Positions 9,230 to 64,000 of a stretch of 64,000 bases of DNA are shown one piece after another; the first letter of the stretch is position 1; each line of letters opens with the position of its first letter. Source of the DNA: Phycisphaerales bacterium (GTDB lineage: Bacteria > Planctomycetota > Phycisphaerae > WQYP01); assembly GCA_009781185.1 (NCBI GenBank), contig WQYP01000005.1:1-64000 (forward strand). Reading direction: 5' to 3'. Below the pieces are notes generated by a model. The model made no database searches and was not told where the DNA came from. It saw only the letters and a list, made by a program, of their open reading frames with translations. A program made the translations under genes and the position numbers.

Positions 9230-9445
9230 ATCAGAGACGTCATCGTAAGAGCACGCTGTCATAATCGCAATCGGGTGCGTGATATGTTTTGCGGGCCTGC
9301 CCCTTCTTATATCGTATCCAAGGCGAGCGAGCGTTGATCTTCGATCAACGGCTAAACTCTCAATTGTCCGCCAAAGCTCCGCATTACCATGCGGGGCTCC
9401 ACCCCGCAAAGCGGGGTCGCTACTTTGGTTTGCATTTCGGGTCAC
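9230..9445 (+). repeat. Family D composite repeat (copy 2)
   Basis: Same module order and orientation as 7352-7550. Confidence 0.85.
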
Positions 9446-9564
9446 ACACCCATTGTAATCTAACGAATGCATAAGCGTAATCTAACAATTGCGGCGATGA
9501 TATTTTTCCGTATAGGATGAACCGTTCCTGATTTCGGAATTCTGTCTTTTTTATTGGAGAATGT

Positions 9565-13553: not shown

Positions 13554-13696
13554 CTCATATCGCATCCAAGGCGAACGAGCGTTGATCTTCGATCAACGGC
13601 TAAACTGCCAGCCCCGCATTGCCATGCGGGGCTCCACCCGCAAAGCGGGGGCGCTACGCGAAGCGGGGGCGCTATTTTGGTTTGCATTTCGTGTCA
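13554..13696 (+). repeat. Family D composite repeat (copy 3, lacks the 5' module)
   Basis: 'ctcatatcgcatccaaggcgaacgagcgttgatcttcgatcaacggctaaac...tgcatttcgtgtcat'. Confidence 0.8.
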
Positions 13697-13724
13697 TGCG
13701 GCTGGTGCGGGTGGGATGCAAGCG

Positions 13725-23103: not shown

Positions 23104-23231
23104 GGCAGTCCTGTTTTGGATGAGGAACAAACGCGGAGAATCATTGTAGGGCATTCGAGCCGCAATCGTAAGATTGCGCTATTGTAACCGCAATCTGGGG
23201 GGGCATGGCACTTTAGGCGGGCTATCTGACT

Positions 23232-25052: not shown

Positions 25053-25190
25053 ATCATCGTCAAGCGCGTAAGGTGGGTGCATGACATGTTTTGCAGAACG
25101 AGCGTTGATCTTCGATCAACGGCTAAACTTGTGCGGACATGCACCACCACCCCGCAAAGCGAGGTCGCTACTTTGTTCTGCATGTTGCGT
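25053..25190 (+). repeat. Family D composite repeat (copy 4, partial)
   Basis: 'atcatcgtcaag..ggtgggtgcatgacatgttttgcag..gttgatcttcgatcaacggctaaac..caccccgcaaagcgaggtcgctac'. Confidence 0.75.
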
Positions 25191-25208
25191 CCCGCACCCG
25201 CATTCCAA

Positions 25209-30500: not shown

Positions 30501-30537
30501 TGCCGGTTTTCTGGAACATGCTCATTCTCCAACTCAT
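27502..30537 (-). CDS. Large leucine-rich-repeat / fibronectin-III surface protein
   Basis: 1011 aa. About 20 LRR units of 22-23 aa ('LKSLNVSACTALQTLNCSNNQ') in two blocks. Three FN3-like modules ('VTLTVSWDAVPGASGY','VTLTWKTIANNAQYEI','VTLTWAASKFPETTSYQVF'). Confidence 0.85.
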   Translation of the reverse strand: MSWRMSMFQKTGKTRPTHNSRHILESLDNRTMLSASPLLPKLAVPDNHATSVALIAPQDQAAVVPAATAADVAADPAPDGYNADDWAKYSTAVDNNGLTADMVTWTQINSEMRLTQVIASDAGLNGTLDLSGCTELSSLDCSFNSLASLNLSDCTALQTLDCSTNQLTSLDLSDCTALQSLNCSTNQLTSLNLSGFTALQTLDCSNNQLTFSTLPLTSNTYSPQSDISIVSSLARDAMLDLSTESMIGGVPTTYTWYYADGTTVSPDNYTETNGQFVFDGLHTDDVIYCTMTNATFPELTLQTTEVTILASTLAAPTGVTATAKDAVTLTVSWDAVPGASGYVIQVGTKTKTVTDGTTLTFDFDDLKVGTTYDVCVMAIGTGDYSDSPYSDTVSATTGVAPYNAYDWAKYTTAIAKNGLTEDMVIWTVVNDELKIKSIDATNSSSSGPFTRPLSGSLNLAGCTALISLNCDNNNQLTSLNVSGCTALQELDCGNNSQFTSLNVSGCTALQELDCSNDQLKSLNVSRCTALQSLACYNNPLKSLNVSRCTALESLDCSYNLLKSLNVSNCTALTALNCSHNSYLKSLNVSGRTALQILSCSYNSRLKSLNASGCTALQQLVCNNNRLTSLNISKCTALQILTCSSNRLKSLNASTCTALLLLSCNSNQLKSLNISRGTALQNLNCSNNKLSSLNLSACAALQILTCSNNKLSSLNASACTALQNLTCSGNKLKSLNVSASTTLQTLTCSGNRLTSLNVSGYTALQNLNCSNNKLKSLNVSACTALQTLNCSNNQLKSLNVSACTALQTLNCSGNKWLTSLDLSGCTALSNNNITCDAPTKAKGIKSSSTLSTVTLTWKTIANNAQYEIICIALGVDEYVTGNTVTIPGLYPGMSYTFFVVATGFNGMQAAAVNVNAKTQTYTAVTNVKATSSANSVTLTWAASKFPETTSYQVFRLDGNTETEVWSGNYTELPVTIPGLTPSTKYTFIVRAISSTLGGIQSADAKISTSTTR
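28054..29175 (-). repeat. Tandem ~69 bp coding repeats (LRR block 2, ~16 units)
   Basis: Recurrent 'ttgcagagccgtgcaggcgga..cgttcagggacttcaa' periodicity. Confidence 0.9.
29902..30165 (-). repeat. Tandem ~69 bp coding repeats (LRR block 1, ~4 units)
   Basis: Same unit type as block 2. Confidence 0.85.
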
Positions 30538-30610
30538 TCTCCAAGATGTATTGCCCTTGCGTCAGCCCCCGGCCCCCCCAATTCTGCCGGGGGTTTGCAC
30601 TGCATACGGG

Positions 30611-30685
30611 AAACGCTCCCTGACGGTCGCGCCTCGGATTGCCCCTTACATTTGACCATCCGAGACGCGACTGTAAGGGAGCATT
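30611..30685. repeat. Family A-related hairpin with the arm order swapped
   Basis: 'aaacgctccctgacggtcgcgcctcgg' ... 'ccgagacgcgactgtaagggagc'. Followed by 'gagcttacgctcgcggctctga' (30700-30722). Confidence 0.7.
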
Positions 30686-30734
30686 TTTAGCTCACGGGAC
30701 GAGCTTACGCTCGCGGCTCTGATGGCGGACGGCG

Positions 30735-31194: not shown

Positions 31195-31280
31195 AAGAAG
31201 CCAGTAGCCAGAAGCCAGAAGCCAGAAGAATCAATGGAAGCCGTAGCTTCTGGCTACTGGCTTCTGGCTTCTGGCTTCTT
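31195..31280. repeat. Heptamer-arm palindrome (gaagcca type)
   Basis: 'aagaagccagtagccagaagccagaagccagaag' (31195-31228) versus 'cttctggctactggcttctggcttctggcttctt' (31247-31280). The right end touches the rpmJ stop codon. Confidence 0.9.
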
Positions 31281-32572: not shown

Positions 32573-32576
32573 GGAT

Positions 32577-32665
32577 CGAAGCCAGAAGCTAGAAGCCAGA
32601 AGCCAGAAGTGAGAAACTGCCGAGACCAAAACCTTCTGGCTACTGGCTTCTGGCTTCTGGCTTCG
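32577..32665. repeat. Heptamer-arm palindrome (gaagcca type)
   Basis: 'cgaagccagaagctagaagccagaagccagaag' versus 'cttctggctactggcttctggcttctggcttcg'. Confidence 0.9.
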
Positions 32666-32678
32666 AGGTTGGCAAGTC

Positions 32679-34258: not shown

Positions 34259-34417
34259 GAAGAAGCCAGAAGCCAGAAGTTAGAAGCTAGAAGGCTCCAG
34301 CTTTGTGGCTTATTCGAGATCCCCAACTTCCGATTCCCAACTTCCAACTTCCGACGACGAACTTCGAACTTCGAGCTTTAGGCTTTAAGCTTCTGGCTTC
34401 TGGCTTCTGGCTTCTTC
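34259..34417. repeat. Large heptamer-arm palindrome whose right arm runs into the rplO 3' end
   Basis: 'gaagaagccagaagccagaagttagaagctagaagg' (34259-34294) versus 'ctttaggctttaagcttctggcttctggcttctggcttcttc' (34376-34417). The loop carries 'ccaacttcc' and 'gaacttcga' units. Confidence 0.85.
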
Positions 34418-34929: not shown

Positions 34930-34964
34930 AATGAGCTACTCCTGGAAAAAGCCGGGAACCATCA

Positions 34965-35000
34965 CCTTCTGGCTTCTGGCTTCTGGCTTCTGGCTTCTTC
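34965..35000. repeat. 'tggcttc' heptamer array (single arm)
   Basis: 'ccttctggcttctggcttctggcttctggcttcttc', between rplO and rpsE. Confidence 0.85.
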
Positions 35001-46673: not shown

Positions 46674-46685
46674 GGGGGGGGGGGG
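46674..46685. repeat. G12 homopolymer
   Basis: 'gttggggggggggggcagg', about 270 nt upstream of the PEP-CTERM gene start (C12 on its coding strand). Confidence 0.9.
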
Positions 46686-47100
46686 CAGGTCGGGTAATGT
46701 GGCGGAACAGGCTTGACAAAGCCCCCCGCGATTGATCGCGGAGGGAGCGGAACGCGGAGAAAATATTCCAACTTCGTTTCATGGCTGAGTTTATGTCAAT
46801 CTTGCCAGAAAGTGTCCGTGCGTAACCGCGCACACGGCAATACGCTGTATGTTCGATATACCACAAGTTTCCAAAAAAACAAGGACTTTTTTATGTTTTT
46901 TGGAAGGGGAGGCGTGACATGGTTTGTACACCCAAGTCGCGTTCGTACGGGTCGCGACGCCGCAAGCGGTTGCGGGGATCTTCCACACAAGTCATGTCGG
47001 TTTTTGCTCCGCCAGCCAAAGCTCCGCATTGCCATGCGGGGCTCTGTCACCCCGCAAAGCGGGGTCTACGTGCTCTGTCTCAACCCTCCGCAAGCGATGA

Positions 47101-47181
47101 TCAGAGCCGCGACCGTAAGGGAGCGACAGGCGGTATTTTCGCATGGTCACACGGGTCGCTCCCTGACGGTCGCGGCTCTGA
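47101..47181. repeat. Family A palindromic element (intergenic)
   Basis: Same 81 bp sequence as 48508-48588, including the loop 'aggcggtattttcgcatggtcacacgg', by eye. Confidence 0.95.
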
Positions 47182-47232
47182 TAGAGGATAGAGACAGAGC
47201 AGGGTCTACGTGCATTTCATGTCACGTGCCTT

Positions 47233-48279
47233 TTATCGGTAGCTGTTTGCGTCTGGTTCCTGAACGGTGGAGAGGAGTTTATCGATAACGGCGTCGGTGT
47301 CGACGCCTTCGGCATCGGCGTTGAAGTTGGTGATGATGCGGTGTCGTAGGACGGGTTTGGCCATGGCTTGGATATCGTCGGTGCTGACGTTGAGTCGGCC
47401 GTGGGTGATGGCACGGGCTTTGGCGCCCAGGACGAGGTATTGTGCGGCGCGTGGGCCGGCGCCCCAGGTGAGCCAATTATTGATGAAGTCGGGGGTGCCG
47501 GGCTCGTTGGGGCGTGTTGCGCGGGCGAGGCTGACGGCGTAATCGACGACGTGGTCCGAGACGGGGACTTTTCGTACGATCCGTTGTACGGCCAAAATGT
47601 CGCTGGCGGTGAGTACCGGCAGCGGGTCTGTTGGGATGTCGCTGGTGGTGTTTTTGACGATGGAGCGTTCGTCCTCGCGGCTGGGATAGCCGACTTTGAC
47701 CATGAACATGAATCGATCTAACTGTGCTTCGGGGAGCGGGTAGGTGCCTTCCTGTTCGACGGGGTTTTGGGTTGCCAGTACGAAGAAGGGGGGTTCGAGG
47801 GGATAGGTTTGGCCGCTGGCGGTGACCTGGGATTCCTGCATGGCCTGGAGCAGGGCGGCCTGGGTTTTTGGGGGGGTTCGGTTGATTTCGTCGGCGAGGA
47901 GCATATTGGAGAAGATGGGGCCTTTGACGAAGTTGAAGACGCGTCGGCCGGTTTGGGTGTCTTCCTGGATGATGTCGGTGCCGGTGATGTCGCTGGGCAT
48001 GAGGTCGGGTGTGAACTGGATGCGATTGAATTTGAGGGAGAGGACTTTGGCGAGTGTGCTGATGATGAGAGTTTTGGCGAGGCCTGGGACGCCGACGAGG
48101 AGGCAGTGTCCGCGTGAGAACATGGCGATGAGGAGGTAGTCGATGACTTCGGTTTGGCCGACGATGACTTTGCGGATTTCGTGGAGCAGCGATTCGCGAG
48201 CGGCTTTCATTTTTTCGACGGCGGCCATGTCGGAGGAACCGTCGGCGTGGGAGGCTGCGGGGGGGGAAATTGGGACCAT
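47233..48279 (-). CDS. MoxR-family AAA+ ATPase
   Basis: '[14 protein letters not shown]' (Walker A), '[23 protein letters not shown]' (Walker B and sensor). Confidence 0.9.
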
Positions 48280-48297
48280 GCTTGATCCTTCAAGAGA

Positions 48298-48486
48298 ATG
48301 AGAAGAGCGAGCGATGGTATGCTACCGCACAGGGCATGGAATTGGAACCGAGTCGCCGGGATGATGGAGGATCTGGCGGGGTTGTGGCTGGAGGGCGGAG
48401 TGAATGTGATGTTTCCGCTGGAGATCGGGTCGTGGCAGTACGATCCGATGCGGCTGCGGAAGAAGTTGGGGGAGGTGAGGTTTTAG
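48298..48486 (+). pseudogene. Possible remnant of a uroporphyrinogen-decarboxylase-family (URO-D/MtaA-like) gene
   Basis: 'LEGGVNVMFPLEIGSWQYDPMRLRKKLGEVRF' resembles the '..G.D.lnPlE...gMDp..LK..yG..l.f' segment near the C-terminus of that family. No N-terminal part is present. Confidence 0.3.
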
Positions 48487-48507
48487 GGGGACAACGCGGG
48501 TTGCGCT

Positions 48508-48588
48508 TCAGAGCCGCGACCGTAAGGGAGCGACAGGCGGTATTTTCGCATGGTCACACGGGTCGCTCCCTGACGGTCGCGGCTCTGA
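48508..48588. repeat. Family A palindromic element (intergenic)
   Basis: Direct duplicate of 47101-47181. The adjoining 48589-48635 segment ('ttatccggggcaatcgtctgattggccataaaaaatggccacaccc') recurs inverted at 63881-63922. Confidence 0.95.
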
Positions 48589-48677
48589 TTATCCGGGGCA
48601 ATCGTCTGATTGGCCATAAAAAATGGCCACACCCGTTTATTATAGCATTTTGTGGGGGTATGCTGTAGGCTGCGGGG

Positions 48678-49706
48678 ATGCATATTCCGGATGGACTTTT
48701 GGATGTGAAGACGGCGGTGGCGATGGGGGTGCTCTCGGCGACAGGGCTGGGGGTGGCGTTGCGGCATGTGCGATTGCATCTGCCGGCGAAACGGGTGCCG
48801 CTGCTGGGACTGTCGGCGGCGTTTGTGTTTGCGGCACAGATGCTGAATTTTCCGGTGTTGCCGGGGGTGAGCGGGCATTTGATCGGAGGGATGCTGACGG
48901 CGGCGCTGCTGGGGCCCAGTGCGGCGGTGGTGGTGATATCGGCGGTGCTGATTGTGCAGTGTTTTTTGCTTGCTGATGGAGGGGTTCTGGCGCTGGGGGC
49001 GAATATTTTTAACATGGCGCTGGTGGGGAGTGCGGGCGGATGGGTGGTGTATTATTTGGTGAGTCGGGCGGTGAAGGGGTTGTTCGGGCGTGTGCTGGCG
49101 GCGACGTTCGCGTCGTGGGTGGCGGTGGTGGTGGCGGCGGTGGCGTGTGCGGGGGCGCTGGCGACGTCGGGGACGGCGAGTTGGTCAGTGTTGCTACCGA
49201 TGATGACGGGGGTGCACATGCTCATCGGCGTGGGTGAGGGGGTGATCACGGCGATGGTGCTGACGTTTATCGCCAAGACGCGGCCGGAGATGTGGGGCGA
49301 TGCGGCGGCGGCGAAGAGAAGCCAGAAGCCAGAAGCCAGAAGCCAAGAGATGGGGGGCGGGCAAACGGTGAATCCAACAGGAACGGAGCGGTGGGGGGCG
49401 GTGATTGTGTTGGGGTTGCTGATTTGTGTGGGGTTGGCGTTGTTCGTGGGGCCGTTTGCGTGCGGGTGGGATGATGGATTGGAGGTGACGGTTCAACAGA
49501 AGGGCGTGCATGTGTCTGAGGCGGCGGAGCATCTGATCAAGGTGCCGATGCCGGACTACAAGATGCCGGGGCTGGGAGACGGCAGAGTGGCGACGGGGGT
49601 GGCGGGAGCGGTGGGGACGGTGGTGGTCTTTGGACTGGCGTGGGTGCTGGCGCGGTCGCTGGTGAGGAAGATGAAACCGGCGGTAGATGTGGGGGGGAGT
49701 GAGTGA
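48678..49706 (+). CDS. cbiM: ECF cobalt/nickel transporter substrate component CbiM fused to a PDGLE-type C-terminal domain
   Basis: 'MHIPDGLLD' start and CbiM TM helices. C-terminal 'ACGWDDGLEVT' between two TM helices. Confidence 0.8.
   Translation: MHIPDGLLDVKTAVAMGVLSATGLGVALRHVRLHLPAKRVPLLGLSAAFVFAAQMLNFPVLPGVSGHLIGGMLTAALLGPSAAVVVISAVLIVQCFLLADGGVLALGANIFNMALVGSAGGWVVYYLVSRAVKGLFGRVLAATFASWVAVVVAAVACAGALATSGTASWSVLLPMMTGVHMLIGVGEGVITAMVLTFIAKTRPEMWGDAAAAKRSQKPEARSQEMGGGQTVNPTGTERWGAVIVLGLLICVGLALFVGPFACGWDDGLEVTVQQKGVHVSEAAEHLIKVPMPDYKMPGLGDGRVATGVAGAVGTVVVFGLAWVLARSLVRKMKPAVDVGGSE
49314..49349. repeat. 'gaagcca' heptamer array inside cbiM
   Basis: 'aagagaagccagaagccagaagccagaagccaagag', translated as 'KRSQKPEARSQE'. 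Confidence 0.9.
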
Positions 49707-49707
49707 G

Positions 49708-50457
49708 ATGCGGGCGGAATATCTGGATCGATACAGCCGATTGAGCAGTCCGGTGCATCGGCTTTGGACGGGTGTGAAATTGTTGGCGGCGGTGGCGGTG
49801 GTGGTGGTGGTGGTGTCGATGCCGCGGAATTTTTGGGGTGGGTGGGCGGGATTGGCGGCGGTGGCGGGGTTTCTGGTAGTGGTGGCGGCGATGAGCGGGA
49901 TTCCGTGGGGGTTTTTGCTGCGGCGGATGCTGTGGCTGGAGCCGCTAGCGATTGGCGTGGCGTTATTGAGCTTGTTGCAGGTGGGTGGGTGGCAGGTGTT
50001 TTTGTGGCTGATGGCGCGGAGCAGTTTGTGTCTGCTGACGATGCTGCTTTTGTCGAACACGGCGCCGTATTCGGAGCTTTTGCGGGTGATGCGTCGGGTG
50101 AAGGTGCCGACGATGCTGGTGACGACATTGGCGTTGATGTATCGGTATTTGTTTGTGATGATGGATGAGGCGGGGCGGATAAAGCGGGCGCGGATGAGTC
50201 GGACGTTTTCGGAGAGGGGGGGGGGGAAATCACGCCGTTGGCGGACGGCGGCGACGGTGGTGAGCCAGTTGTTCATCCGAGTGAGCGAACGATCGGAGCG
50301 GATATTCGCGGCAATGTGTGCGCGGGGATGGGGAGACGGTCTGAGCCGCGACCGTAAGGGAGCGACCCGTTCTAGCGCTCTGTTATCGCACGGTCGCTCC
50401 CTTACGGTCGCGGCTCAGATCGTCAAAGACAATAGCTCTGGGAACGAGGGAAGATAA
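49708..50457 (+). CDS. cbiQ: ECF transporter transmembrane (T) component CbiQ
   Basis: 'MRAEYLDRYSRLSSPVHRL' from the ATG at 49708, 2 nt after the cbiM stop. '..AMCARGW' lies near the native C-terminus. The stop TAA overlaps the cbiO ATG. Confidence 0.8.
   Translation: MRAEYLDRYSRLSSPVHRLWTGVKLLAAVAVVVVVVSMPRNFWGGWAGLAAVAGFLVVVAAMSGIPWGFLLRRMLWLEPLAIGVALLSLLQVGGWQVFLWLMARSSLCLLTMLLLSNTAPYSELLRVMRRVKVPTMLVTTLALMYRYLFVMMDEAGRIKRARMSRTFSERGGGKSRRWRTAATVVSQLFIRVSERSERIFAAMCARGWGDGLSRDRKGATRSSALLSHGRSLTVAAQIVKDNSSGNEGR
50340..50419. repeat. Family A palindromic element forming the 3' end of cbiQ
   Basis: 'tctgagccgcgaccgtaagggagcgac...gtcgctcccttacggtcgcggctcaga'. The stem position is A-T paired here. 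Confidence 0.9.
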
Positions 50458-51211: not shown

Positions 51212-51427
51212 TTTGGTACCGCGACCGTAGGGAGCGTGGGGGAAAGTTCGAAACTCGAAATTCAAATCAAATTCCAAATTCAAAGTTCGAAGCTCGAAAC
51301 AGCCTGGGGGCGAATGGATGGTGTAGGCGGTGTTTCGAACTTTGAACATTCGAATTTGGAATTTGTTTCGAATTTCGAATTTCGAGTTTCGAATTTCTAA
51401 ACGCTCCCTTACGGTCGCGGTACCAAA
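51212..51427. repeat. Composite nested palindrome: family A-type arms enclosing a 'ttcgaa'-unit palindrome
   Basis: 'tttggtaccgcgaccgtagggagcg' (51212-51236) and 'cgctcccttacggtcgcggtaccaaa' (51402-51427) flank an inverted homolog of 5957-6110. Confidence 0.85.
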
Positions 51428-52366: not shown

Positions 52367-53461
52367 TTAGTTGCCATCGGAGTGGCCCCAGCGGAAATGG
52401 CGGGCTTCGAGCTGGGTGATGAGTTGATCGGTGGTGGGAGAGGTAGCGAGGAGGTCGGCGAGGATTTTTTCGGCGGCTTGGTAGTCGGCGAGACCGGTGT
52501 CGTCGCCGGTGTGGTAGATAAGCGTGTCGGTTTGGGCGAGGCGGGCGGCGAGGAGTTGGAGGATGGTCATGAGTTGGCGGTCGCCGCCGTAGACGCCGCA
52601 GCCCCAAAAGCCGGTGTGGATGGTGATTTTTGGGAGAGCATCAGAGCCGCGACCGTCAGGGAGCGACCCCTGAGTTACCGCTTCACGGTCGCTCCCTGAC
52701 GATTGCGGCTCTGATGATTGTATTTTTGCGGCGGTGAAGGCGGTGGTGGCAGTAGTGAGGATGTAGCGAATTTGGTTGGCGGTGTAGAAGCCTTTGCCGT
52801 TAGCGGGGGCCTCGATGGCGATGATGTTGGAGAAGGTGGGTGGGTCGATGGTGGTGATCGCGCAGCGGACGACGTCGGCGGAGGCTTGGGCAAAGGCATT
52901 GCCGTAAAGGCCGCGGAGCTTGATGCGACGCTGGACGTTTTGAATGAGGATCGGTGTGGGCTCGCCGGACTCGACGGTAAGGGTGGAAAGGCGATCGTGC
53001 AGGAGGGCTTCGCGGAGGTGGGCGAGGATGGGATGCTCGGCGACCTGCAGTTCATCCTGGGCGAGCAGAGGGGAGGCATAAAACAAAAAGAGATCGCTGT
53101 GGGCAAAGTTGAGGTGCCACTCGATGATGTTTTTATTTTTATTTTTATTTTTCGGTGTGTCATAGGTGAAGAAATCGGGACGGGCTTCGGCGGCAGGAAT
53201 TTTGGCGGGGAGCGTTTGCGGGAGAGGCTGGGCGGGCCAGCGGGAATAGGTGAGAGTGCCGGCGTGGGCAGAGTTTTTCGGGCAGGCGAGGGCGTAGGTG
53301 AGTTGCTTGTTGGAATCTTGGAAAGTGAGGGGGAAGTCTTTGGCGAGTGTGGCGGCGTCGTAGGATTTGGTGGCGAGCGGTTTCATGACCGGCTCCGTAG
53401 TCGCAGCGGTAAACATCGCTGCGAAAAGAACAATCGCTAGAAGTTTGCAAATAACAGTCAT
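52367..53461 (-). CDS. Poly(ADP-ribose) glycohydrolase (PARG)-like protein with an N-terminal signal peptide
   Basis: 'HTGFWGCGVYGGDRQLMTILQLLAA' versus eukaryotic PARG 'TGNWGCGAFGGD..LK.L.Q.LAA' (recalled from memory). 'LNFAHSD...LLAQDELQVAEHP' versus 'DFANK.LGGG...VQEEIRF..NPE'. Signal peptide 'MTVICKLLAIVLFAAMFTAA'. Confidence 0.6.
   Translation of the reverse strand: MTVICKLLAIVLFAAMFTAATTEPVMKPLATKSYDAATLAKDFPLTFQDSNKQLTYALACPKNSAHAGTLTYSRWPAQPLPQTLPAKIPAAEARPDFFTYDTPKNKNKNKNIIEWHLNFAHSDLFLFYASPLLAQDELQVAEHPILAHLREALLHDRLSTLTVESGEPTPILIQNVQRRIKLRGLYGNAFAQASADVVRCAITTIDPPTFSNIIAIEAPANGKGFYTANQIRYILTTATTAFTAAKIQSSEPQSSGSDREAVTQGSLPDGRGSDALPKITIHTGFWGCGVYGGDRQLMTILQLLAARLAQTDTLIYHTGDDTGLADYQAAEKILADLLATSPTTDQLITQLEARHFRWGHSDGN
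52641..52714. repeat. Family A palindromic element, in frame in the PARG-like gene
   Basis: 'tcagagccgcgaccgtcagggagcgac...gtcgctccctgacgattgcggctctga'. The stem position is C-G paired here. Confidence 0.9.
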
Positions 53462-54319
53462 TTACGCGATCCGCGGCTTGATCCACTGGATGAATTTGGG
53501 GAAAGCGATTTCGGGGTCGGGCAGTTCGGGGTGCCAATGTTTTTCGTATTCGAAGAGCAGCCAGCCCCCCCCCGCGCTGTAGCCGTTACGTTTGAGGATC
53601 GCGACGCATTCGGCGAGCGGGAGCTGGCCTGTGCCGCAGTCGACATAGCGCCAGCCGGTGCCGACGCCGAATTCGCCTTTGCTGGCCTTGGGGTCGGCGG
53701 GGACGTAGACGGCATCCTTGAGGTGGACGTAGCGGATACGTGGGGCGAGGGCGGTGTAAGTTTGCAGCGGCGTTTCTTTCCTGGTCATGGCGGCGGCGGT
53801 GTCCCAGACGGCAGCGAAGTTGTCGTCAGGGACGGCGTCGAGCATCAGCTTGGTGTCGGCGCCCTGAATCCAGTGGTCGTGAGTTTCGAAATTCCAGGAG
53901 AGCCCCCCCCCCTTGGCGCCGGGAAGAGCGAAGATTTCCTGCATCATGTTAGCGCCGATTTTGACGAGTTCGGAGCGTGGGGTGGTATCGAGGTTGCCGT
54001 AGCCCATGACGCGGATGTTTTTGGCGCCGATGGCCTGGCAGACGGCGATGGTGCGTTTGGCTTCGTCGAGGTTACGGTCGTGGCGATCGGGGTTGCAGAT
54101 GCAGATGGAGGAGGAGATGCCGAAGATTTCGACGCCGGCGTCTTTGATTTTGCGGACGGTTTGGGGGAGGTCCGCATTGAAGGCGGGGATGGCGGCGATG
54201 TCGAGCTGGCCGAGGAGGCCGCGGAAGTCGATGCCGTCGAAGCCGAATTTTTTGGTGTTGGTCAGCAGCGTGTCGAGGTTCCACGCGGGACAGCCGAGGG
54301 TGGTGAGGGAGAGTTTCAT
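53462..54319 (-). CDS. Sugar phosphate isomerase/epimerase (xylose-isomerase-like TIM barrel)
   Basis: 'MKLSLTTLGCPAWNLDTLLTNTKKFGFDGIDFRGL'. Its stop codon abuts the start of the PARG-like gene. Confidence 0.75.
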   Translation of the reverse strand: MKLSLTTLGCPAWNLDTLLTNTKKFGFDGIDFRGLLGQLDIAAIPAFNADLPQTVRKIKDAGVEIFGISSSICICNPDRHDRNLDEAKRTIAVCQAIGAKNIRVMGYGNLDTTPRSELVKIGANMMQEIFALPGAKGGGLSWNFETHDHWIQGADTKLMLDAVPDDNFAAVWDTAAAMTRKETPLQTYTALAPRIRYVHLKDAVYVPADPKASKGEFGVGTGWRYVDCGTGQLPLAECVAILKRNGYSAGGGWLLFEYEKHWHPELPDPEIAFPKFIQWIKPRIA

Positions 54320-54478
54320 CATGCACCAATTCAAATGGTTTGCGAGCTGATACAAAACTTACGTCCGCGAGCCCGGACCGCTGCCATCGCATTTGGATGC
54401 GATTTCGCTATCGTGGCCCAAAGGCCGGGCACAGCGAAGCAGGAGATTGGCATCAAGAAGTATCGGCATTAGAATGGA

Positions 54479-54802: not shown

Positions 54803-55651
54803 CTAGAAAGCGACTCCCTCGGCAAGCAGTGTTTTGGCCCATTTGACGAAGGCGGGGAAGGCGATTTCCGGCTCCGGAAGCGTCGGGTGCCAGCGTTTTT
54901 CGTGTTCGAAAAGCAGCCAACCGCTGAAGCCTTTTTGGCTCAGGAGTTTGACGGATTGGGCGAGTGGGAGTTGGCCTTCGCCTGGGAGGGTGTAGCGCCA
55001 GCCGCCTTCCATGGCGTTGGGGTGATTGGGTTGGAGAGAGGCGTCTTTGACGTGTGTGTAGCGGACGCGTGGGCCGATGGCGGCGTAGGTTTGCTCGGGG
55101 GATTCGCCGCCGACGCGGTAGGTGTGGCCGAGGTCCCACAGGGCACCAAAAGCGGGATTGGCGACGACGTCGAGCAGGAGTTTGCAATCGACGGCCTTGA
55201 TCCAGTGGTCGTGCGTTTCGAAATTCCAGGAAAGCCTCCCCCCCTCGGCGCCGGGAAGGGCGAGAATTTCGTTGACCATGGCGGCGCCGATTTTGGCGAG
55301 TTCGGGTTTTGGCATTTTGTCAGCCGGGCCGCCGCCGAAGATGCGGATGTTTTTGGCGTTCAGAGCCAAAGCGACGGGGATCGTGCGCTTCGCTTCGTCG
55401 AGGTTGTCGTTGTGCTTGGCGGGGTCGCAGACTTTGATGGAGGAGGAGATGCCGGAGACTTCGAGGCCGGCGTTTTGGATTTGTTGTGCGGTTTTGGTGA
55501 GGTTGGTGGTGAAGGCGGGGAGTTTGGTGATGTCGAGGTCCATTCCCAGTCCGCGGAAGTCGATGCCGTGGTAGCCGTAGGCTTTGGCGTTGGTCAGGAG
55601 GGTCTCGAGGGACCAGCCGGGGCAGCCGAGGGTCATGACGGAGAGCTTCAT
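54803..55651 (-). CDS. Sugar phosphate isomerase/epimerase (TIM barrel), paralog of 53462-54319
   Basis: 'MKLSVMTLGCPGWSLETLLTNAKAYGYHGIDFRGL'. Colinear with the paralog throughout. Confidence 0.75.
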   Translation of the reverse strand: MKLSVMTLGCPGWSLETLLTNAKAYGYHGIDFRGLGMDLDITKLPAFTTNLTKTAQQIQNAGLEVSGISSSIKVCDPAKHNDNLDEAKRTIPVALALNAKNIRIFGGGPADKMPKPELAKIGAAMVNEILALPGAEGGRLSWNFETHDHWIKAVDCKLLLDVVANPAFGALWDLGHTYRVGGESPEQTYAAIGPRVRYTHVKDASLQPNHPNAMEGGWRYTLPGEGQLPLAQSVKLLSQKGFSGWLLFEHEKRWHPTLPEPEIAFPAFVKWAKTLLAEGVAF

Positions 55652-58135: not shown

Positions 58136-60889
58136 GTGGCTAAGAAAAAAGTTTCCAAGTCGTCGGCTAAATCGGTCAAGAAAGCTCCCGCCGGTAAAGC
58201 GAAGGACGCAGTTGCCAAGCGCGTCTTTTTCTTTGGCAACGGCAAGGCGGAAGGGATGAAGTCCGCCAGCACGGAATCGCAGCGGAGAATGATGCTCGGC
58301 GGCAAGGGTGCTGGTCTTGCGGATATGACTTCCGCGGGGCTGCCGGTGCCGCCGGGATTCACGATCTCCATCCCGTGCTGCGAAGAGTATTACCAGCTCG
58401 GGCGGAAGCTTTCGGACAAGACCAAGAAGGAAGTGCTGGAGAATCTGACGAAGGTCGAAGCGGCGATGGGCAAGAAGCTGGGCGATCCTAACGATCCGCT
58501 GCTTGTGTCTGTGCGGTCCGGTGCTGCTCGCTCGATGCCGGGCATGATGGAGACCATCCTGAACCTCGGGCTGAACGATCAGTCCGTTGAAGGCCTTGCC
58601 AGGAAGACCGGCAATGAGCGGTTTGCTTACGATTCTTATCGCCGTTTTATTCAGATGTACTCCACCACGGCGATGGGGCTTTCCAAAGAGCCGATGGAAG
58701 AGTTGCTTCATGAGATGAAGCACAAGCTGGGGGTGAAGACGGACCCTGAAATCCCGGCGGCCAATCTCAAGGACCTCTGCGAACATTTCAAGAAATTCTA
58801 CAAGGACAACAAGGGCTCCGATTTCCCGCAGGACCCGGTTGAGCAGCTTTGGGGCGCTATTATGGCGGTCTTTGGCAGTTGGGAAGCGGACAAGGCCGTG
58901 ACGTATCGCCGGGTTGAAAAAATCACGGAGCTCAAAGGCACCGGCGTGAACGTTCAGACCATGGTCTACGGCAACAAGGGCGATAACTCCGGTACGGGCG
59001 TCTGCTTCACCCGCGATCCCAACACCGGCGAAAATATCTTCTACGGCGATTACCTCATTAACGCCCAGGGCGAAGATGTCGTCGCCGGCATCCGTACGCC
59101 GCTGAAGCTCTCCACCATGGAAAAGCAGCTTCCCCGCGCTTACAAGGAACTCTGCCAGGTTCGCAAGCAGCTCGAAAAGCACTACAAGGATATGCAGGAC
59201 TTGGAGTTTACCGTTGAGGAAGAGAAGCTGTTCATGCTTCAGTGCCGCAGCGGCAAGCGTTCTCCGTCGGCGACTTTTAAGATTGCCGTCGATTTGGTCA
59301 ATGAGAGGCTTTTGACCAAAGAAGAAGCGATCATGCGGATCACGCCGGAAGATATTGAACGCTTGTTCTACCCGGTGATCGATCCGAAGCTGGACCGCAA
59401 GAGTTTGCCGAAGCTGGCCAATGGTATTGATGCGGTGCCTGGTGCTGCGGCTGGTCGCGTTTCCTTTAGTGCCGCCGACGCGGAAGCTCGCGCTGCCAAG
59501 GGCGAAAAGGTCATTCTCGTTCGCAAGGAAACTTCGCCTGAAGATGTCGGCGGTATGCATGCCGCACAAGGCATTCTTACTGCTACCGGCGGAAAGACTT
59601 CGCACGCGGCCGTCGTCGCTCGCGGTTGGGGTAAGTGCTGCATCGTCGGATGCGAAGCGCTTCGCATTAACTACGAGACTGGCGAAATGGTCATCGACGG
59701 TAAAACCGTCAAGGCAGGCGATTTCATTACGCTTGATGGTTCCACCGGCGACGTGTTCCTTGGCGAACTTTCCCTCAAGGCTCCTGAACAGCCGCTCGCT
59801 TACAATATTATCATGAAGTGGTGCGATGCGATTCGTACGCTCAAGGTCCGTACTAATGCTGACACGCCGTATGACGCTGAGAACGCCATCAAGATGGGGG
59901 CCGAAGGCATCGGCCTGACACGTACCGAGCACATGTTCTTCGACACCGAAGAACGCCGGTTGGCTATTCAGGAAATGATCGTCGCGGATTCGGTGAATGC
60001 CCGGCGTGCGGCGCTGGCCAAGCTCCTGCCTTTCCAACGCGAAGATTTCATCGGCATCTTTACCGCGATGGATGGCAAGCCTGTGACCATCCGTCTCATC
60101 GATCCGCCGCTCCATGAGTTCACGCCGAAGGATGACGCTGGCGTGAGCAAACTTTCGCAGCTCACCGGTATTTCGCCGGAGGACATCCGTCACCGCTGCC
60201 ATCAGCTCCATGAAGCCAATCCGATGCTCGGGCATCGCGGCTGCCGACTCTGCATCACCTACCCGGAAATTCTCGATATGCAGGTCACGGCGATCATCGA
60301 AGCGGCGATCGCCTGTGCCCAAAAGGGTGTTAAGGTCCTGCCAGAAATCATGATTCCGCTGACGATGGACAAGAAGGAACTGAAGATTCAAGTGGACCAG
60401 GCGCGTGCACTGGCTGACGGTCTGATCAAGAAGGCTGGCAGCAGGGTGAAATACATGCTGGGCACGATGATCGAAGTTCCGCGAGCGGCACTTCTGGCCG
60501 ACCAGGTCGCCGAAGTTGCCGAGTTCTTCTCTTTTGGCACCAACGACCTGACGCAGATGACGATGGGCCTTTCCCGCGACGACGCCGGCCGCTTCCTGCC
60601 CACCTACGTCGCTTCCGAAAAGGACGGTGGCAAGGCGATCTTCAAAGCGGATCCGTTCCAATCGCTCGACCAGGACGGCGTAGGCGCGTTGGTCAAGATC
60701 GGCATCGAAAAAGGCCGCAAGACCCGCAAAGACCTCAAGATCGGCATCTGCGGCGAACACGGCGGCGAAGCCAACTCCGTGAAGTTCTGCCATAAAGCCG
60801 GCATGAACTACGTGAGCTGCTCGCCGTATCGCGTTCCGATCGCTCGCCTGGCCGCCGCACAGGCCGTGATCGCCGACAAGAAGAAATAA
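58136..60889 (+). CDS. ppdK: Pyruvate, phosphate dikinase (Lys-rich N-terminal extension)
   Basis: 'GGKGAGLADM', phospho-His loop 'TATGGKTSHAAVVARG', 'GICGEHGG'. GTG start. Confidence 0.95.
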   Translation: MAKKKVSKSSAKSVKKAPAGKAKDAVAKRVFFFGNGKAEGMKSASTESQRRMMLGGKGAGLADMTSAGLPVPPGFTISIPCCEEYYQLGRKLSDKTKKEVLENLTKVEAAMGKKLGDPNDPLLVSVRSGAARSMPGMMETILNLGLNDQSVEGLARKTGNERFAYDSYRRFIQMYSTTAMGLSKEPMEELLHEMKHKLGVKTDPEIPAANLKDLCEHFKKFYKDNKGSDFPQDPVEQLWGAIMAVFGSWEADKAVTYRRVEKITELKGTGVNVQTMVYGNKGDNSGTGVCFTRDPNTGENIFYGDYLINAQGEDVVAGIRTPLKLSTMEKQLPRAYKELCQVRKQLEKHYKDMQDLEFTVEEEKLFMLQCRSGKRSPSATFKIAVDLVNERLLTKEEAIMRITPEDIERLFYPVIDPKLDRKSLPKLANGIDAVPGAAAGRVSFSAADAEARAAKGEKVILVRKETSPEDVGGMHAAQGILTATGGKTSHAAVVARGWGKCCIVGCEALRINYETGEMVIDGKTVKAGDFITLDGSTGDVFLGELSLKAPEQPLAYNIIMKWCDAIRTLKVRTNADTPYDAENAIKMGAEGIGLTRTEHMFFDTEERRLAIQEMIVADSVNARRAALAKLLPFQREDFIGIFTAMDGKPVTIRLIDPPLHEFTPKDDAGVSKLSQLTGISPEDIRHRCHQLHEANPMLGHRGCRLCITYPEILDMQVTAIIEAAIACAQKGVKVLPEIMIPLTMDKKELKIQVDQARALADGLIKKAGSRVKYMLGTMIEVPRAALLADQVAEVAEFFSFGTNDLTQMTMGLSRDDAGRFLPTYVASEKDGGKAIFKADPFQSLDQDGVGALVKIGIEKGRKTRKDLKIGICGEHGGEANSVKFCHKAGMNYVSCSPYRVPIARLAAAQAVIADKKK

Positions 60890-60917
60890 CTCTCTCCATT
60901 AACTAACCAACCCCTCA

Positions 60918-60948
60918 AGCCTAGGGACTGCAGTCCCTAGGCTTTTTT
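60918..60948 (+). terminator. Rho-independent terminator of ppdK
   Basis: Stem agcctagggac/gtccctaggct with loop tgca, then T6. Confidence 0.85.
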
Positions 60949-61121
60949 CATGGCAAAACAGAACACCAAAACAGAGCTGCAATCGTAAGATTGCAGTGGG
61001 GGGGAAAATGGGGGAGGCACGCCTGAAAGGCGTCAACATACGTAGCCGGGAGCAGCGTCCCCGGTTAGCATACCCCCACAGACGCCACGCCCTGAAAGGG
61101 CAATACATAGGGAATGACTTT

Positions 61122-61643
61122 ATGACAGCATCTGACTGGATAGCTCTGGCTACTTTAATCGCCGGTGTAATAGGCGGAGTATTTGTTTGGTGGCAGTGGC
61201 GTATTGGCAACAAGACGAAACGAGCTGAGTTCATCAGTCAGATAATTGAAAAATTACGATTTGATCCCGAGATACCCAAAATAATGTACCTGCTCGATTA
61301 TGATCAGCAATGGTATGATGCAAACTTTCACGGCGGTAGCAAAATCGAAGAAAAGATAGATAAGTTATTCTCTTATCTTACATACATTTGCTATATGCGG
61401 AAGCATAAAAATATAAGCAATCGCGAGTTTTGTATATTGGATTATGAGATAAGAAGAGTTTGCCAGAACAAGCAAGGACAGGCGTATCTTTGGAATTTAT
61501 ACCACTTTTCGAGAAAAATGGAGACGCAGTGTTCTTTTCATGATTTGATAGAATATTTAAGAAACAAAGTTTTGAGTGCAGAACAGAAAGAACGATTCGA
61601 TAGCAAAGACAACGGGGATTATCCTAAGTTTCTAAATTTTTAG
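61122..61643 (+). CDS. AT-rich hypothetical protein with a single N-terminal TM helix
   Basis: 'MTASDWIALATLIAGVIGGVFVWWQW', then a ~130 aa soluble domain. Visibly much lower GC than the neighbouring genes. No family confidently recognised. Confidence 0.6.
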   Translation: MTASDWIALATLIAGVIGGVFVWWQWRIGNKTKRAEFISQIIEKLRFDPEIPKIMYLLDYDQQWYDANFHGGSKIEEKIDKLFSYLTYICYMRKHKNISNREFCILDYEIRRVCQNKQGQAYLWNLYHFSRKMETQCSFHDLIEYLRNKVLSAEQKERFDSKDNGDYPKFLNF

Positions 61644-61841
61644 CAAAATGAACGGACGGGTGGCCGGGGTCTGATTTTTGGGTGTCACAGATTTGGACCT
61701 GTGCTTGGGTTTTAGCGTGAGGGTGCCGGTTCGAATTGTCCGAGTCAGTAGTCACCGCCGGGGAGGTGGACGGTGATGGCGAGGGTGCCGCCGAGCTTGC
61801 AGGCAAGCAGGCAGAGGTATTCGCCAGATGCGTTGTGAGCA

Positions 61842-62279
61842 TCACACGCAAGCCAGCTCAGCTTTGGCGTCACTTTGTTCCGCCGCTTCGATCAACCGGT
61901 CGTAAACCTGTTTGCGGTAGGTCAGCGATGGCGCTTGTTCAGAGCCGGGCGACGCCAACAGCTTCGCAAGAAAGAACAAGTACCCTAGTTTCATCGGCCC
62001 ATCCTGAATCTCGATCTGGAACGCAGGCATTTTCTCCGACAATTTCCGGCAGAGACTTTTGATGCCTTTAATGAGCGCCCCGGTGACTTCGTTGGTTTCC
62101 TGGCTGTAGTAGACGGTGATCAGATCGTCAATACGCTCACCGTAGAACATATCGGGTTTCGCAATGAATTCGATGCAATCGCCGTCGGGATCGTAGTAGG
62201 CGTGCGGCTCAAATGGCGGAGCGGATTCCGCCAGTTTCATCACATACTCTTCGAATTGTTTATTGCTCATGGCCGTCAT
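61842..62279 (-). CDS. Hypothetical protein (second gene of an overlapping pair)
   Basis: '[39 protein letters not shown]'. Its ATG (62277-62279) overlaps the upstream gene's TGA (62276-62278) as ATGA. Confidence 0.55.
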   Translation of the reverse strand: MTAMSNKQFEEYVMKLAESAPPFEPHAYYDPDGDCIEFIAKPDMFYGERIDDLITVYYSQETNEVTGALIKGIKSLCRKLSEKMPAFQIEIQDGPMKLGYLFFLAKLLASPGSEQAPSLTYRKQVYDRLIEAAEQSDAKAELACV

Positions 62280-62707
62280 AACAGTCTCCTCTTGAATCGT
62301 ACCCCGTGATTTATCGGCAAATCCGGCGAGTCGGGTTCGGCCTTGTCCCACCTCCAATTGTAGGCAATGCCATCCGCGTTCACAAACACCAGATACACCT
62401 GTCCGCGATAGGGCGGGGCTTCGGTTCCATCGGGCCGGTGACTGTGCGGTGGAATGCCGCAGTAGCATCTCCATCCGATGCCACGACGATCCTCGTCTTC
62501 TTCCCGAGTGATGCCTTCGAAAATGGCTCGCGGTTTTTGAAGGATGTAAGCCACGAGGACCGCGGCATCTCTGGCATGCCCCGCGCTGCGTCTGATAACA
62601 ACTTGCAGCCTGTCATAGGATATCTGCACCTTCAGCGGTTTGCCGTCGCCTGGGTTGATGGCGTCAATCATCAGAAATTGCCGCCGTGTTGATGATTGCT
62701 CGGACAT
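62276..62707 (-). CDS. Hypothetical protein (first gene of an overlapping pair)
   Basis: 143 aa ORF, '[28 protein letters not shown]'. No family recognised. Confidence 0.55.
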
Positions 62708-62741
62708 GGGGGCATCCTATTCGCACGGATGGCGGGAATCA

Positions 62742-63158
62742 ACCAGATCGCCGAAGTCGCCGAGTTCTTCTCCTTGGGGGCAACCCCTTGAGGGCAACCT
62801 CTTCGGCACCAACGACCTCACCCAGATGACCATGGGCCTCTCCCGCGACGACGCCGGCCGCTTCCTCCCCGCCTACGTCGCCAGCGAAAAAGACGGCGGC
62901 AAAGCCATCTTCAAAGCCGACCCCTTCCAATCCCTCGACCAGGATGGTGTAGGCGCCTTGGTCAAGATCGGCATCGAAAAAGGCCGCCAAACCCGCAAAG
63001 ACCTCAAGATCGGCATCTGCGGCGAACACGGCGGCGAAGCCAACTCCGTGAAGTTCTGCCATAAGGCCGGCATGAACTACGTGAGCTGCTCGCCGTATCG
63101 CGTTCCGATCGCTCGCCTCGCGGCGGCCCAGGCTGTGATTGCGGAGAAGAAGAAGTAA
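62742..63158 (+). pseudogene. Duplicated 3' fragment of ppdK (last ~125 codons), disrupted by a ~28 bp insertion
   Basis: '[33 protein letters not shown]...[18 protein letters not shown]' parallels ppdK residues. The insert 'cttgggggcaaccccttgagggcaacct' (62773-62800) introduces a stop. Confidence 0.9.
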
Positions 63159-63187
63159 GCTTCTCCTCCAAATCAAACCTCCATCGA

Positions 63188-63216
63188 GCCCAGAGACTGT
63201 AGTCCTTGGGCTTTTT
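63188..63216 (+). terminator. Duplicated (diverged) ppdK terminator
   Basis: 'gcccagagactgtagtccttgggctttttt'. Confidence 0.7.
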
Positions 63217-63300
63217 TCATGATGTGCTCACACGGAGACGCAGAACCATCCGAGCCGCAATCATAAGATTGCGGTTCGCAGGGGTGTGGTTGTTGTTTCA

Positions 63301-63420
63301 CTATTAGAGCATTTTTCATGTGGTCGTGGCGTAATGACATGCGCAGGAAGCGAGAGCCAAAGCCCCGCATTGCCATGCGGGGCTCCAAAACGCTACGGGC
63401 GAGTGAAAAATGTTCTAATG
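63301..63420. mobile_element. 116 bp MITE-like element (copy 2, inverted relative to 17075-17190)
   Basis: 'ctattagagcatttttcatgtggtcgtggcgtaatgacatgcgcaggaagcgagagccaaagccccgcattgccatgcggggct...gtgaaaaatgttctaatg'. Confidence 0.8.
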
Positions 63421-63485
63421 TGGCAAGCCCCACTCATGCCGGGCGGCGATAAGTGGGGCTCGTAGAGAAGGCAGGTCATTTTACC

Positions 63486-63516
63486 ACTTATAGTCTATAT
63501 GTTTGACTTATAGTCT
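63486..63516 (+). promoter_or_regulatory. Direct repeats (possible operator) upstream of the XRE gene
   Basis: 'acttatagtct' at 63486-63496 and at 63506-63516 (20 bp phasing), in an AT-rich stretch. Confidence 0.35.
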
Positions 63517-63545
63517 CTATTCTCATCGACGTCAAGGGGACTAAT

Positions 63546-63818
63546 TTGCGCTCCGTGCAGAGTCATTCCCCAGATACTCTCAAACTCGCTTACGGCGATA
63601 CCCTGCGTAAGTTCAGGTTGCCCACTGGACTCAGCCAGATGAAGTTGGCCGACAAGGTTGGTGTTCATTTCACCTATCTGAGCGATGTCGAACGTGGCAA
63701 TCGAAATATTGCCTTGGTCAATATCGTGCGTGTTGCCCGAGCGTTAGATGTGCCACTGGACAAGTTCTTTGCCGAAGTTGAAGCGCAGCTCGCTCGTTAT
63801 TCGCATCCAACAAAATGA
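63546..63818 (+). CDS. XRE-family (Cro/CI-type) HTH transcriptional regulator
   Basis: 'LRKFRLPTGLSQMKLADKVGVHFTYLSDVERGNRNIALVNIVRVARAL'. TTG start. Confidence 0.75.
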   Translation: MRSVQSHSPDTLKLAYGDTLRKFRLPTGLSQMKLADKVGVHFTYLSDVERGNRNIALVNIVRVARALDVPLDKFFAEVEAQLARYSHPTK

Positions 63819-63922
63819 AGAATTGAGGCGTACCTCGAAAAACGCCCACGCTTAGGAGAGGGAGGAGGGGGGGGTTGGGCGTGGCCATTTTTTATGGCCA
63901 ATCAGACGATTGCCCCGGAAAA

Positions 63923-64000
63923 TCAGAGCCGCGACCGTCAGGGAGCGACAGGCGTTATTTCCGCATTGTCGCACGGATCGCTCCCTGACGGTCGCGGCTC
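63923..64000. repeat. Family A palindromic element (cut by the window end)
   Basis: 'tcagagccgcgaccgtcagggagcgac...atcgctccctgacggtcgcggctc'. Together with 63881-63922 it forms an inverted copy of 48508-48635. Confidence 0.85.

Follow-up and report, generated by a model that had tools for sequence, protein, structure and literature searches.

Two identical palindromic elements flanking moxR in a Phycisphaerales contig are probably REPIN-like doublets of the class 3 TnpA-Y1 hairpin

The 64,000 nucleotides analysed here, referred to as the window, are positions 1 to 64,000 of contig WQYP01000005.1 from a Phycisphaerales bacterium (assembly GCA_009781185.1), and they contain a moxR gene bracketed by two identical palindromic elements of 82 bp. 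With a probability of roughly three in four, these elements are inverted doublets of the repetitive extragenic palindromic (REP)-like hairpin associated with class 3 TnpA-Y1 transposases, organised in the manner of REP doublets forming hairpins (REPINs), and are non-autonomous, incidental insertions of a young subfamily. The bracket itself is most likely incidental because the hairpins belong to a very abundant mobile palindromic repeat. The region comprises the following features, where URO-D denotes uroporphyrinogen decarboxylase and ORF an open reading frame.

47101-47182 (+): REPIN-like doublet A, with left arm 47101-47127, loop 47128-47154 and right arm 47155-47182
47233-48279 (-): moxR, an AAA+ ATPase of 348 aa, apparently intact with full-length domains (AAA_3, 9e-63; AAA_lid_2, 7e-17)
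48298-48486 (+): URO-D-family internal fragment, a 62-aa ORF truncated at both ends
48508-48589 (+): REPIN-like doublet B, 82/82 identical to A, within the divergent spacer between moxR and cbiM
Outer flanks: ...GCAAGCGATG to the left of doublet A and TATCCGGGGC... to the right of doublet B

A repeat comparison of the window showed that 47101-47182 and 48508-48589 are identical at 82 of 82 positions, one base more than the 81 bp of the first-pass annotation, which had described two identical, directly oriented elements around moxR and a gene remnant. An inverted-repeat search gave both doublets arms of 27-28 nt with a single A.G mismatch and a loop of 27 nt. The loop is asymmetric, and read from it copies A and B do lie in the same, direct orientation. 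Doublet A is placed 51 bp past the moxR stop codon, and its arms score E values of 4e-7 and 8e-7 with the arm covariance model; doublet B starts 22 bp downstream of the end of the truncated URO-D fragment. Outside the 82 bases the flanks of A and B have nothing in common. The gene remnant is real, since the 62-aa ORF matches an internal part (residues 240-298) of URO-D-family proteins of ~360 aa (HMMER against representatives; E 2e-9, 54% identity). When the URO-D gene of one relative (L202) was compared with the remnant by tblastn, no match was obtained. No DUF58 or vWA partner gene adjoins moxR.

Each arm of the doublets holds a small hairpin of its own, CGC-GA-CC GTNA GG-GA-GCG, made up of a single-stranded CnGA foot, a stem of 7-8 bp, a 2x2 G.A/A.G internal loop and a GTNA tetraloop. 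REP-like hairpins flanking class 3 TnpA-Y1 (HuH-Y1) genes were described by Quentin et al. (2018; BMC Genomics 19:475, PMC6006769). In Table S1 of that survey the class 3 hairpin has a CnGA foot and the form CCGCGACC-GTNA-GGGAGCGG, with entries for Legionella pneumophila (CCGAGCCGCGACCGTAAGGGAGCGGA, structure .....((((..((....))..)))).) and for Solibacter usitatus (CAGAGCCGCGACCGTTAGGGAGCG), in which ~600 copies are reported; the range given for class 3 covers Planctomycetes, Acidobacteria and Proteobacteria. The arms in the window read TCAGAGCCGCGACCGT[A/C]AGGGAGCGAC, which is the same as the Table S1 entries except at n and N, and they agree with the class 3 REP-like consensus, CnGAGCCGCGACCGTNAGGGAGCG, in foot, hairpin, mismatch and GTNA loop. 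Judged by its sequence, the arm of the moxR doublets is the class 3 REP-like hairpin as tabulated there, by identity rather than by resemblance. A lone arm folds weakly (-3.3 kcal/mol, DNA fold), in agreement with the 'weaker secondary structure' mentioned in the class 3 account (PMC6006769). Alongside this form there is a sister subtype, CCGCAATC-GTAA-GATTGCGG, which is a perfect small palindrome, and a third subtype, GAGC-GTAA-GCTC. A literature search with the arm sequence as a text string found nothing relevant, and Rfam searches of the whole window (gathering threshold) and of the region (E<=10) returned only chance matches to microRNA and small nucleolar RNA families.

The small hairpin shows clear covariation. 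Among 143 distinct arms, stem pair 17-24 covaries strongly (CG 102, GC 24, UA 8, AU 4, unpaired 4), the two inner pairs are G.A/A.G-type mismatches or, in minority subtypes, Watson-Crick pairs, and none of 500 shuffles or of the slid controls reaches the covariation score of the arm. At the N of the GTNA loop any base may stand (C 49, A 42, G 41 and T 13 in 145 arm occurrences). It is this loop N, in the small hairpin of each arm, that the first-pass annotation had taken for a variable stem position whose double substitutions would reveal selection on the hairpin. Its six family copies were recovered at the places it gave, with the base states it reported (A.G at 22120, 47100 and 48507; A-T at 50340; C-G at 52640 and 63922). 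However, in 57 inverted doublets from several phyla the two loop N bases agree in 20 and differ in 37, where chance (0.286) predicts ~16 agreements (p=0.17), and the argument does not hold at the position cited. Modest concerted change of the long stem was found at two other positions. Among seven lineage sequences, double changes are present at three stem pairs, with a score higher than that of 495 of 500 shuffles, which gives modest support. At the CnGA foot, n is T/T in the 50340 copy, and the orthologous copy in a relative (L197) has CCGA feet and CAT for CGT in both arms. Such concerted change could stem from selection on the hairpin, from a need for matching feet, or from correction between arms or copies.

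In 32 of the 57 doublets, arms of unlike subtypes are paired, with the inner long stem mismatched and each small hairpin kept. Because these heterotypic doublets break the long stem and keep the small hairpins, the constrained unit is the single arm, that is, foot plus small hairpin. In the 52639 copy the outside of the right arm is of the AATC subtype, and this hybrid arm shows that exchange between subtypes happens. That the long stem can pair follows mainly from the inverted placement of two conserved arms, to which some REPIN-like concerted change is added.

The 82-bp element thus consists of two arms, inverted around a variable spacer; the arms are 96-100% complementary and the loops vary among copies. 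Folded as single-stranded DNA the doublets reach -36 to -44 kcal/mol (z ~ -11) and are very stable on either strand, in line with the hairpin potential and family membership claimed in the first-pass annotation. Inverted REPs, a less conserved spacer and a long predicted single-stranded hairpin together make up the anatomy of a REPIN. Moreover, of 18 fixed positions, doublet arms in the window match 17-18 and singlet arms 15-16 (a small sample), and better conservation of doublets than of singlets was described for REPINs by Bertels and Rainey (2011; PMC3116915), as were compensatory changes across the REPIN hairpin. The REPINs of Pseudomonas and Enterobacteria treated in that study share with the elements here the inverted REPs, the less conserved spacer, a hairpin of ~70-110 nt, compensatory changes, a dominant master variant and the higher conservation of doublets. 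They differ in having a 5' GT[AG]G foot and class 2 enzymes, the REP-associated tyrosine transposases (RAYTs), whereas the foot here is CnGA, not GTAG, and the enzyme class is the uncharacterised class 3. They are also described as extragenic (PMC3116915), whereas three of the seven doublets here lie within coding sequence. So far as its sequence indicates, the doublet works like a REPIN, outside the RAYT/GTAG systems.

The likeness to the class 3 REPs of the 2018 survey extends to a near-identical arm, the 2x2 internal loop, high copy number and matching phyla. In its class 3 section and Table S1, the survey (PMC6006769) presents these hairpins only as gene-flanking and abundant, and doublets with a 27-bp stem, compensated subtypes side by side in a single genome, housekeeping genes with in-frame copies and occurrence on phage contigs have no counterpart there. 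The class 3 REPs also differ in that they flank their cognate gene, and none was found here.

A genome scan of one genome per species with the pattern TCAGAGCCGC-NNN-CGT-N-AG-NNN-GCG returned at least 118 loci. Among the matches listed were Acidobacteriota (Solibacter, Bryobacterales), Planctomycetota (Phycisphaerae, Planctomycetaceae), delta- and gammaproteobacteria, Verrucomicrobiae and Binatia, that is, the phyla of the published class 3 range plus Verrucomicrobiae and Binatia. The exact arm was present in at least 77 stretches of the metagenome scan, again with the taxonomic spread of the published class 3 range, and the arm was found in 66 viral-contig stretches (IMG/VR). It also occurs in Legionella adelaidensis (PLSDB), where no transposase lies within the 16-kb stretches around the arms. 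Arms occur as singlets, as heterotypic pairs and as tandem arrays, and about half of those in other genomes are unpartnered. Clustering of neighbouring ORFs gave no protein family enriched near the motif.

Within the window the arm pattern occurs 11 times, as against 0 in 100 shuffles. The arm covariance model recognises 14 strong arms, which make up seven doublets, and ~8 weaker singlets, so that there is about one element per 5 kb. Words from the arms reach a depth of ~5000-6200 in the termite-gut metagenome, those from the loop family of the moxR copies 1200-1500, and those from unique DNA ~10; arms thus stand at ~500-600x unique DNA in the source metagenome, with organisms possibly pooled, and the loop family at the order of 100 copy-equivalents. 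Most of the loop family in the metagenome has the loop variant seen in the 63922 copy, whereas the moxR-type variant is a minority (~200 of a depth of 1050-1540), equivalent to roughly 12-20 copies. The genome probably holds hundreds of arms, and its host is probably a termite-gut member of the Phycisphaerae (Planctomycetota); the nearest relatives of the window proteins are named Phycisphaerales or Tepidisphaerales.

Some arrangements of the arm in other sequences were recorded in passing. Arms ~3.76 kb apart bound a portal-scaffold-capsid module in three viral contigs (L259, L238 and L263), and head-to-tail arm arrays with periods of 29-32 nt and 67/136 nt are present in L211 (1300-1750), L245 (13140-13490), L058 (106-225), L025 and L069. 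A CRISPR explanation of the regularly spaced arms in viral contigs was discarded, the 67/136-nt tandem repeats being without unique spacers.

The surroundings of doublet A preserve the trace of its insertion, in the form of another repeat family that is interrupted at this place.

47016-47075 (+): 5' half of the interrupted repeat (CCCCGCAAAGCGGGGTC...), running to ...CCCCGCAAAGCGGGGTCTACGTGC left of doublet A
47202-47230 (+): 3' half of the same repeat, which opens with a second GGGTCTACGTGC and goes on TGCATTTCATGTCACG, as intact copies do

The interrupting block (47076-47213) is 127 bp long, holds doublet A and ends in GGGTCTACGTGC. It has a 10-bp inverted shell (GCTCTGTCTC/GAGACAGAGC) and is flanked by a 12-bp direct duplication (GGGTCTACGTGC). 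The intact copies used for comparison, at 7478 and 9373, belong to the D5/D6 family. As this D5/D6-family repeat continues across doublet A, the DNA on either side of A was contiguous before the insertion; and since the other repeat spans both sides, doublet A is a simple insertion and not a junction that imported moxR. At copy B a rearrangement did take place in the past, because the doublet abuts the broken URO-D gene.

Two observations concern these neighbouring sequences in their own right. Members of the interrupted family are found at 7478-7556, 9373-9451, 13625-13703 and 25121-25199, and consist of two GC hairpins (CCCCGCATTGCCATGCGGGG and CCCCGCAAAGCGGGG) with a conserved TTTGCATTTCGTGTCACG tail. 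In addition, a 45-nt flank composed of the CAATCGTCTGATTG palindrome and the TGGCCATAAAAAATGGCCA hairpin stands beside doublets at 48590-48634 and at 63877-63921. These two flanks are mutually inverted while the doublet loops are direct, which points to inversion of a doublet or to insertion beside the same small element in either orientation.

As to mechanism, foot plus hairpin would be recognised on single-stranded DNA by a class 3 TnpA-Y1 whose gene lies in another part of the genome. By analogy with IS200/IS605 and with RAYT/REPIN systems, this enzyme would cut and rejoin the arms and so move or copy doublets as single-stranded DNA; the background for single-stranded cut-and-rejoin is provided by TnpA of the IS200/IS605 insertion sequences and by TnpA-REP (PMC6006769). 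Two members of a subfamily whose copies are nearly identical may then have come to lie 1.4 kb from each other, a local hop being one possibility. The left copy inserted downstream of moxR, into an intergenic repeat that was already there, and the right copy lies where a degraded URO-D gene is broken off. Most likely, then, the bracket arose from two separate insertions, both by members of a young subfamily. It is not a composite transposon, in which the repeats would lie at the junctions of a translocated segment; here another repeat crosses copy A.

Several points weigh against this interpretation. Neither a Y1 gene of any class in the 64-kb window nor a class 3 Y1 gene in ~1.85 Mb of flanks from the genome, metagenome and viral scans was detected. 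The searches used tblastn with E. coli RayT (serving as probe only) and with the Y1 domains of L031 and L062, together with regular expressions for the class 3 TnpA-Y1 motifs NHVH and YV..EQ. The link to a class 3 enzyme thus rests on the published association and not on this genome. In the literature searched, no work on class 3 biochemistry was found; its coverage of class 3 enzymes and hairpins is confined to one brief passage and one supplementary table in the 2018 survey, with the mechanism unreported. The copy numbers are metagenome word depths, in which several organisms may be pooled. Moreover, the probability that two of 12-20 identical copies fall within 1.4 kb of each other by chance is ~0.04-0.10 in a 5-Mb genome, which implies some local process. 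Finally, an IS200-like mechanism, in which the target is not duplicated, does not account for the 12-bp duplication and the 10-bp shell around doublet A. The absence of a Y1 gene nearby is nevertheless expected, because one to three such genes per several hundred hairpins are supposed.

The only Y1 genes found in the flanks were those of L031 and L062. L062, from a Planctomycetia metagenome-assembled genome (MAG), has a Y1 transposase-like gene at 3576-4290 flanked by a different palindrome (AGCCGCAAGCGGCT), so that genomes of this kind evidently house other REP-like systems alongside the class 3 arms. In L031, from a Phycisphaerales MAG, the valyl-tRNA synthetase ORF (89-4117) includes an in-frame Y1_Tnp (IS200-like) domain (Pfam, E 1e-6) as well as peptides typical of translated palindromic repeats, that of a class 3 arm (PLPDGRGSE) included. 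Judged from the translation, this Y1 gene appears to carry palindromes of its own.

Since moxR lies between direct copies, deletion or mobilisation of the gene through them, as the first-pass annotation envisaged, would be possible in principle. The 82 identical direct bases would allow rare RecA-dependent loss of moxR as a side effect, not as a function. It is quite unlikely that the copies delimit a 1.4-kb cassette in which moxR moves or is excised, whether by RecA or by Y1 cutting at the outer hairpins. Such a cassette would account for copies that are direct and identical at all 82 positions, for hairpins on both strands of each doublet and hence properly oriented ends, for the truncated URO-D gene that marks a past rearrangement at copy B, and for a spacing of 1.4 kb that two of ~12-20 identical copies are unlikely to reach by chance. 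In two relatives, moreover, the upstream neighbour of cbiM is not moxR but an MGMT-like gene (L201) or nikR (L202), their CbiM proteins, at 72% and 63% identity, being too distant for closely related strains of the same gene order; CbiM and poly(ADP-ribose) glycohydrolase (PARG) relatives of 72-76% identity were used for the lineage comparison. What speaks against a cassette is the D5/D6-family repeat running on both sides of copy A, the lack of any shared flank or target duplication around the whole segment, and the presence of the same variant at many other places. Among the contig joints listed, none skips from 47182 to 48589, a negative that carries no weight because contigs made from 31-mers cannot cross a repeat of 82 bp. 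A related idea, which we hold to be distinctly improbable, is that pairs of class 3 doublets serve as ends for the enzyme, with moxR and the gene fragment moved as single-stranded cargo; if true, the abundant REPINs would be a gene-shuffling system that also colonises essential coding sequences in frame. Scarcely credible is a repeat-induced misjoin that left moxR only seemingly bracketed. The assembly is indeed a metagenome assembly, and Logan contigs, built from 31-mers, break exactly at the elements; yet the flanks differ between the two copies, the unique parts between and beside them have an equal depth of ~8-10, and a contig assembled with k=141 spans both copies with unique flanks. That contig (ENA metagenome contig L001, 3556 bp) is 100% identical to the window over 46675-50230 but is not independent proof, because it may stem from the same assembly.

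The remaining alternatives assign the doublet itself another identity. An RNA-level role of the long hairpin as the selected unit, whether in stabilising mRNA, in attenuation or termination, or in processing, would make sense of the very stable fold on both strands, of the double changes at three stem pairs in seven lineage copies (495 of 500 shuffles beaten) and of copies within operons (cbiQ-cbiO, PARG-rluD), where transcription would cover them. However, about half of the arms elsewhere are singlets, the inner stems fail to match in 32 of 57 doublets, and loop-N agreement is at chance. Singlets between co-directional genes fall 19 in sense and 19 in antisense orientation (crude gene calls), copies are also read in frame within genes, and the orthologous PARG copy has diverged at about the rate of the surrounding gene. 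An RNA role as the primary function is unlikely, since there is no strand bias, no T-run terminator at the elements and no Rfam family, and copies sit in coding sequence; strand placement, T-runs and curated families likewise give no sign of a terminator or cis-regulatory RNA. Terminal inverted repeats of 27 bp, a length of ~80 bp and a high copy number are also what a miniature inverted-repeat transposable element (MITE) would display, and a 12-bp direct duplication does flank the 127-bp block with copy A. We regard internally deleted DDE-type insertion sequences with the arms as terminal inverted repeats as very improbable all the same, because target duplication is not regular (none is consistent at the 82-bp units, and the flanks of seven copies share none) and because the arms also stand alone, in heterotypic pairs and in head-to-tail arrays. 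In addition, no insertion sequence with such ends is present in the window, and the arms are identical to the HuH-Y1-flanking sequences tabulated in the 2018 survey.

Copies other than A and B, and further palindromes of the window, are as follows, where PPDK denotes pyruvate phosphate dikinase.

22120-22201 (+): doublet with a different loop, in frame in lysS (21352-23154, -)
23151-23184 (+): degenerate singlet arm of the AATC subtype
30608-30726 (-): two singlet arms (30608-30642 and 30694-30726) between rpsM and the following gene, the second of the GAGC/GCTC subtype
50335-50424 (+): doublet whose arms both have a CTGA foot, with A-T at loop N, in place of the cbiQ stop codon
52273-52344 (+): sister-subtype doublet, each arm CAGAG-CCGCAATC-GTRA-GATTGCGG, a perfect small palindrome
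52639-52716 (+): doublet in frame in a PARG-like macrodomain gene (52367-53461, -), with the AATC hybrid as right arm
63245-63279 (+): degenerate singlet arm after the duplicated PPDK 3' end, with a counterpart at 60972-61001 after the intact PPDK
63922-64000 (+): doublet cut by the window end, with the majority metagenome loop variant
Other palindromic families: 31195-31280, 32576-32666, 34261-34408 and 34955-34999; 51248-51396; 866, 8297 and 14870

Relative to homologues, LysRS (lysyl-tRNA synthetase) and CbiQ contain insertions. In comparison with the Geobacillus enzyme (PDB 3a74), the 22120 copy adds 81 nt, or 27 codons (SEPRPSGSD-SAARHQESQ-SLPYGRGSD), to LysRS, and the insertion falls between parts aligned to 3a74 residues 296 and 300, where there is a short connection. 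CbiQ of relatives ends in ARGWRQ-stop or ARGWQ-stop; that of the window reads on through the 50335 copy and gains ~40 residues, ending one base ahead of the cbiO start (50335-50457). The PARG-like insertion has an ortholog in the relative L197 (2196-2286), in a 76%-identical Phycisphaerales protein and at 81% DNA identity, and is absent in more distant homologues. L197 also carries a sister doublet that is absent at the same place here.

Mosaics of differing REP types are known from E. coli, where bacterial interspersed mosaic elements (BIMEs) combine the Y and Z types and bind integration host factor or gyrase. The elements here resemble BIMEs in having differing REP subtypes in alternating orientation, in clusters and in arrays, and differ from them in sequence, foot and enzyme class. 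Rickettsia palindromic elements (RPE), which Ogata et al. are said to have described in 2000, reportedly lie in frame in protein-coding genes, essential ones included. The resemblance is one of behaviour only, in that in-frame palindromes are tolerated as an extra peptide; no kinship is expected, the host lineage being another and a HuH-Y1 partner not being known for RPE. RPE are mentioned in a recent review (PMC10969869).

For moxR itself the finding is an ordinary one. For class 3 hairpins, REPIN-like doublets with a dominant master variant are new, as is the coexistence and recombination of subtypes in one genome. LysRS and a PARG-like enzyme accommodate the elements in frame, and CbiQ does so at its C-terminus. 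A nearly invariant arm of 25 nt that is common to Legionella, Acidobacteria, termite-gut Planctomycetota and their phages offers a concrete substrate for enzyme biochemistry, and annotators should be aware that such repeats cause odd protein insertions and contig breaks.

Additional features of the window were observed. The last ~110 codons of PPDK are duplicated at 92% identity (60533-60832 and 62802-63101), and the two copies bracket ~2.3 kb of small ORFs without family matches, with an XRE-type helix-turn-helix gene after the second (60900-63900). A degenerate AATC-type arm follows each PPDK copy, and the arrangement looks like an island inserted at the 3' end of a gene. Further palindromic families comprise inverted runs of the heptamer GGCTTCT, inverted runs of the TTTCGA(A/G) type, and GGCAGGCAAGCCTGCCGGCTAAATAAG; one GGCTTCT-type run of 29 nt lies within cbiM (~49317-49345). 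An ORF of 1011 aa at 27502-30537 (-) consists mostly of ~20 copies of a 63-nt (21-aa) tandem repeat. The adjacent genes at 53462-54355 and 54803-55651 are paralogous, with 74-81% DNA identity, and the position of the first is occupied in L197 by an AP_endonuc_2 (xylose-isomerase-like TIM barrel) gene, an assignment made by position only.

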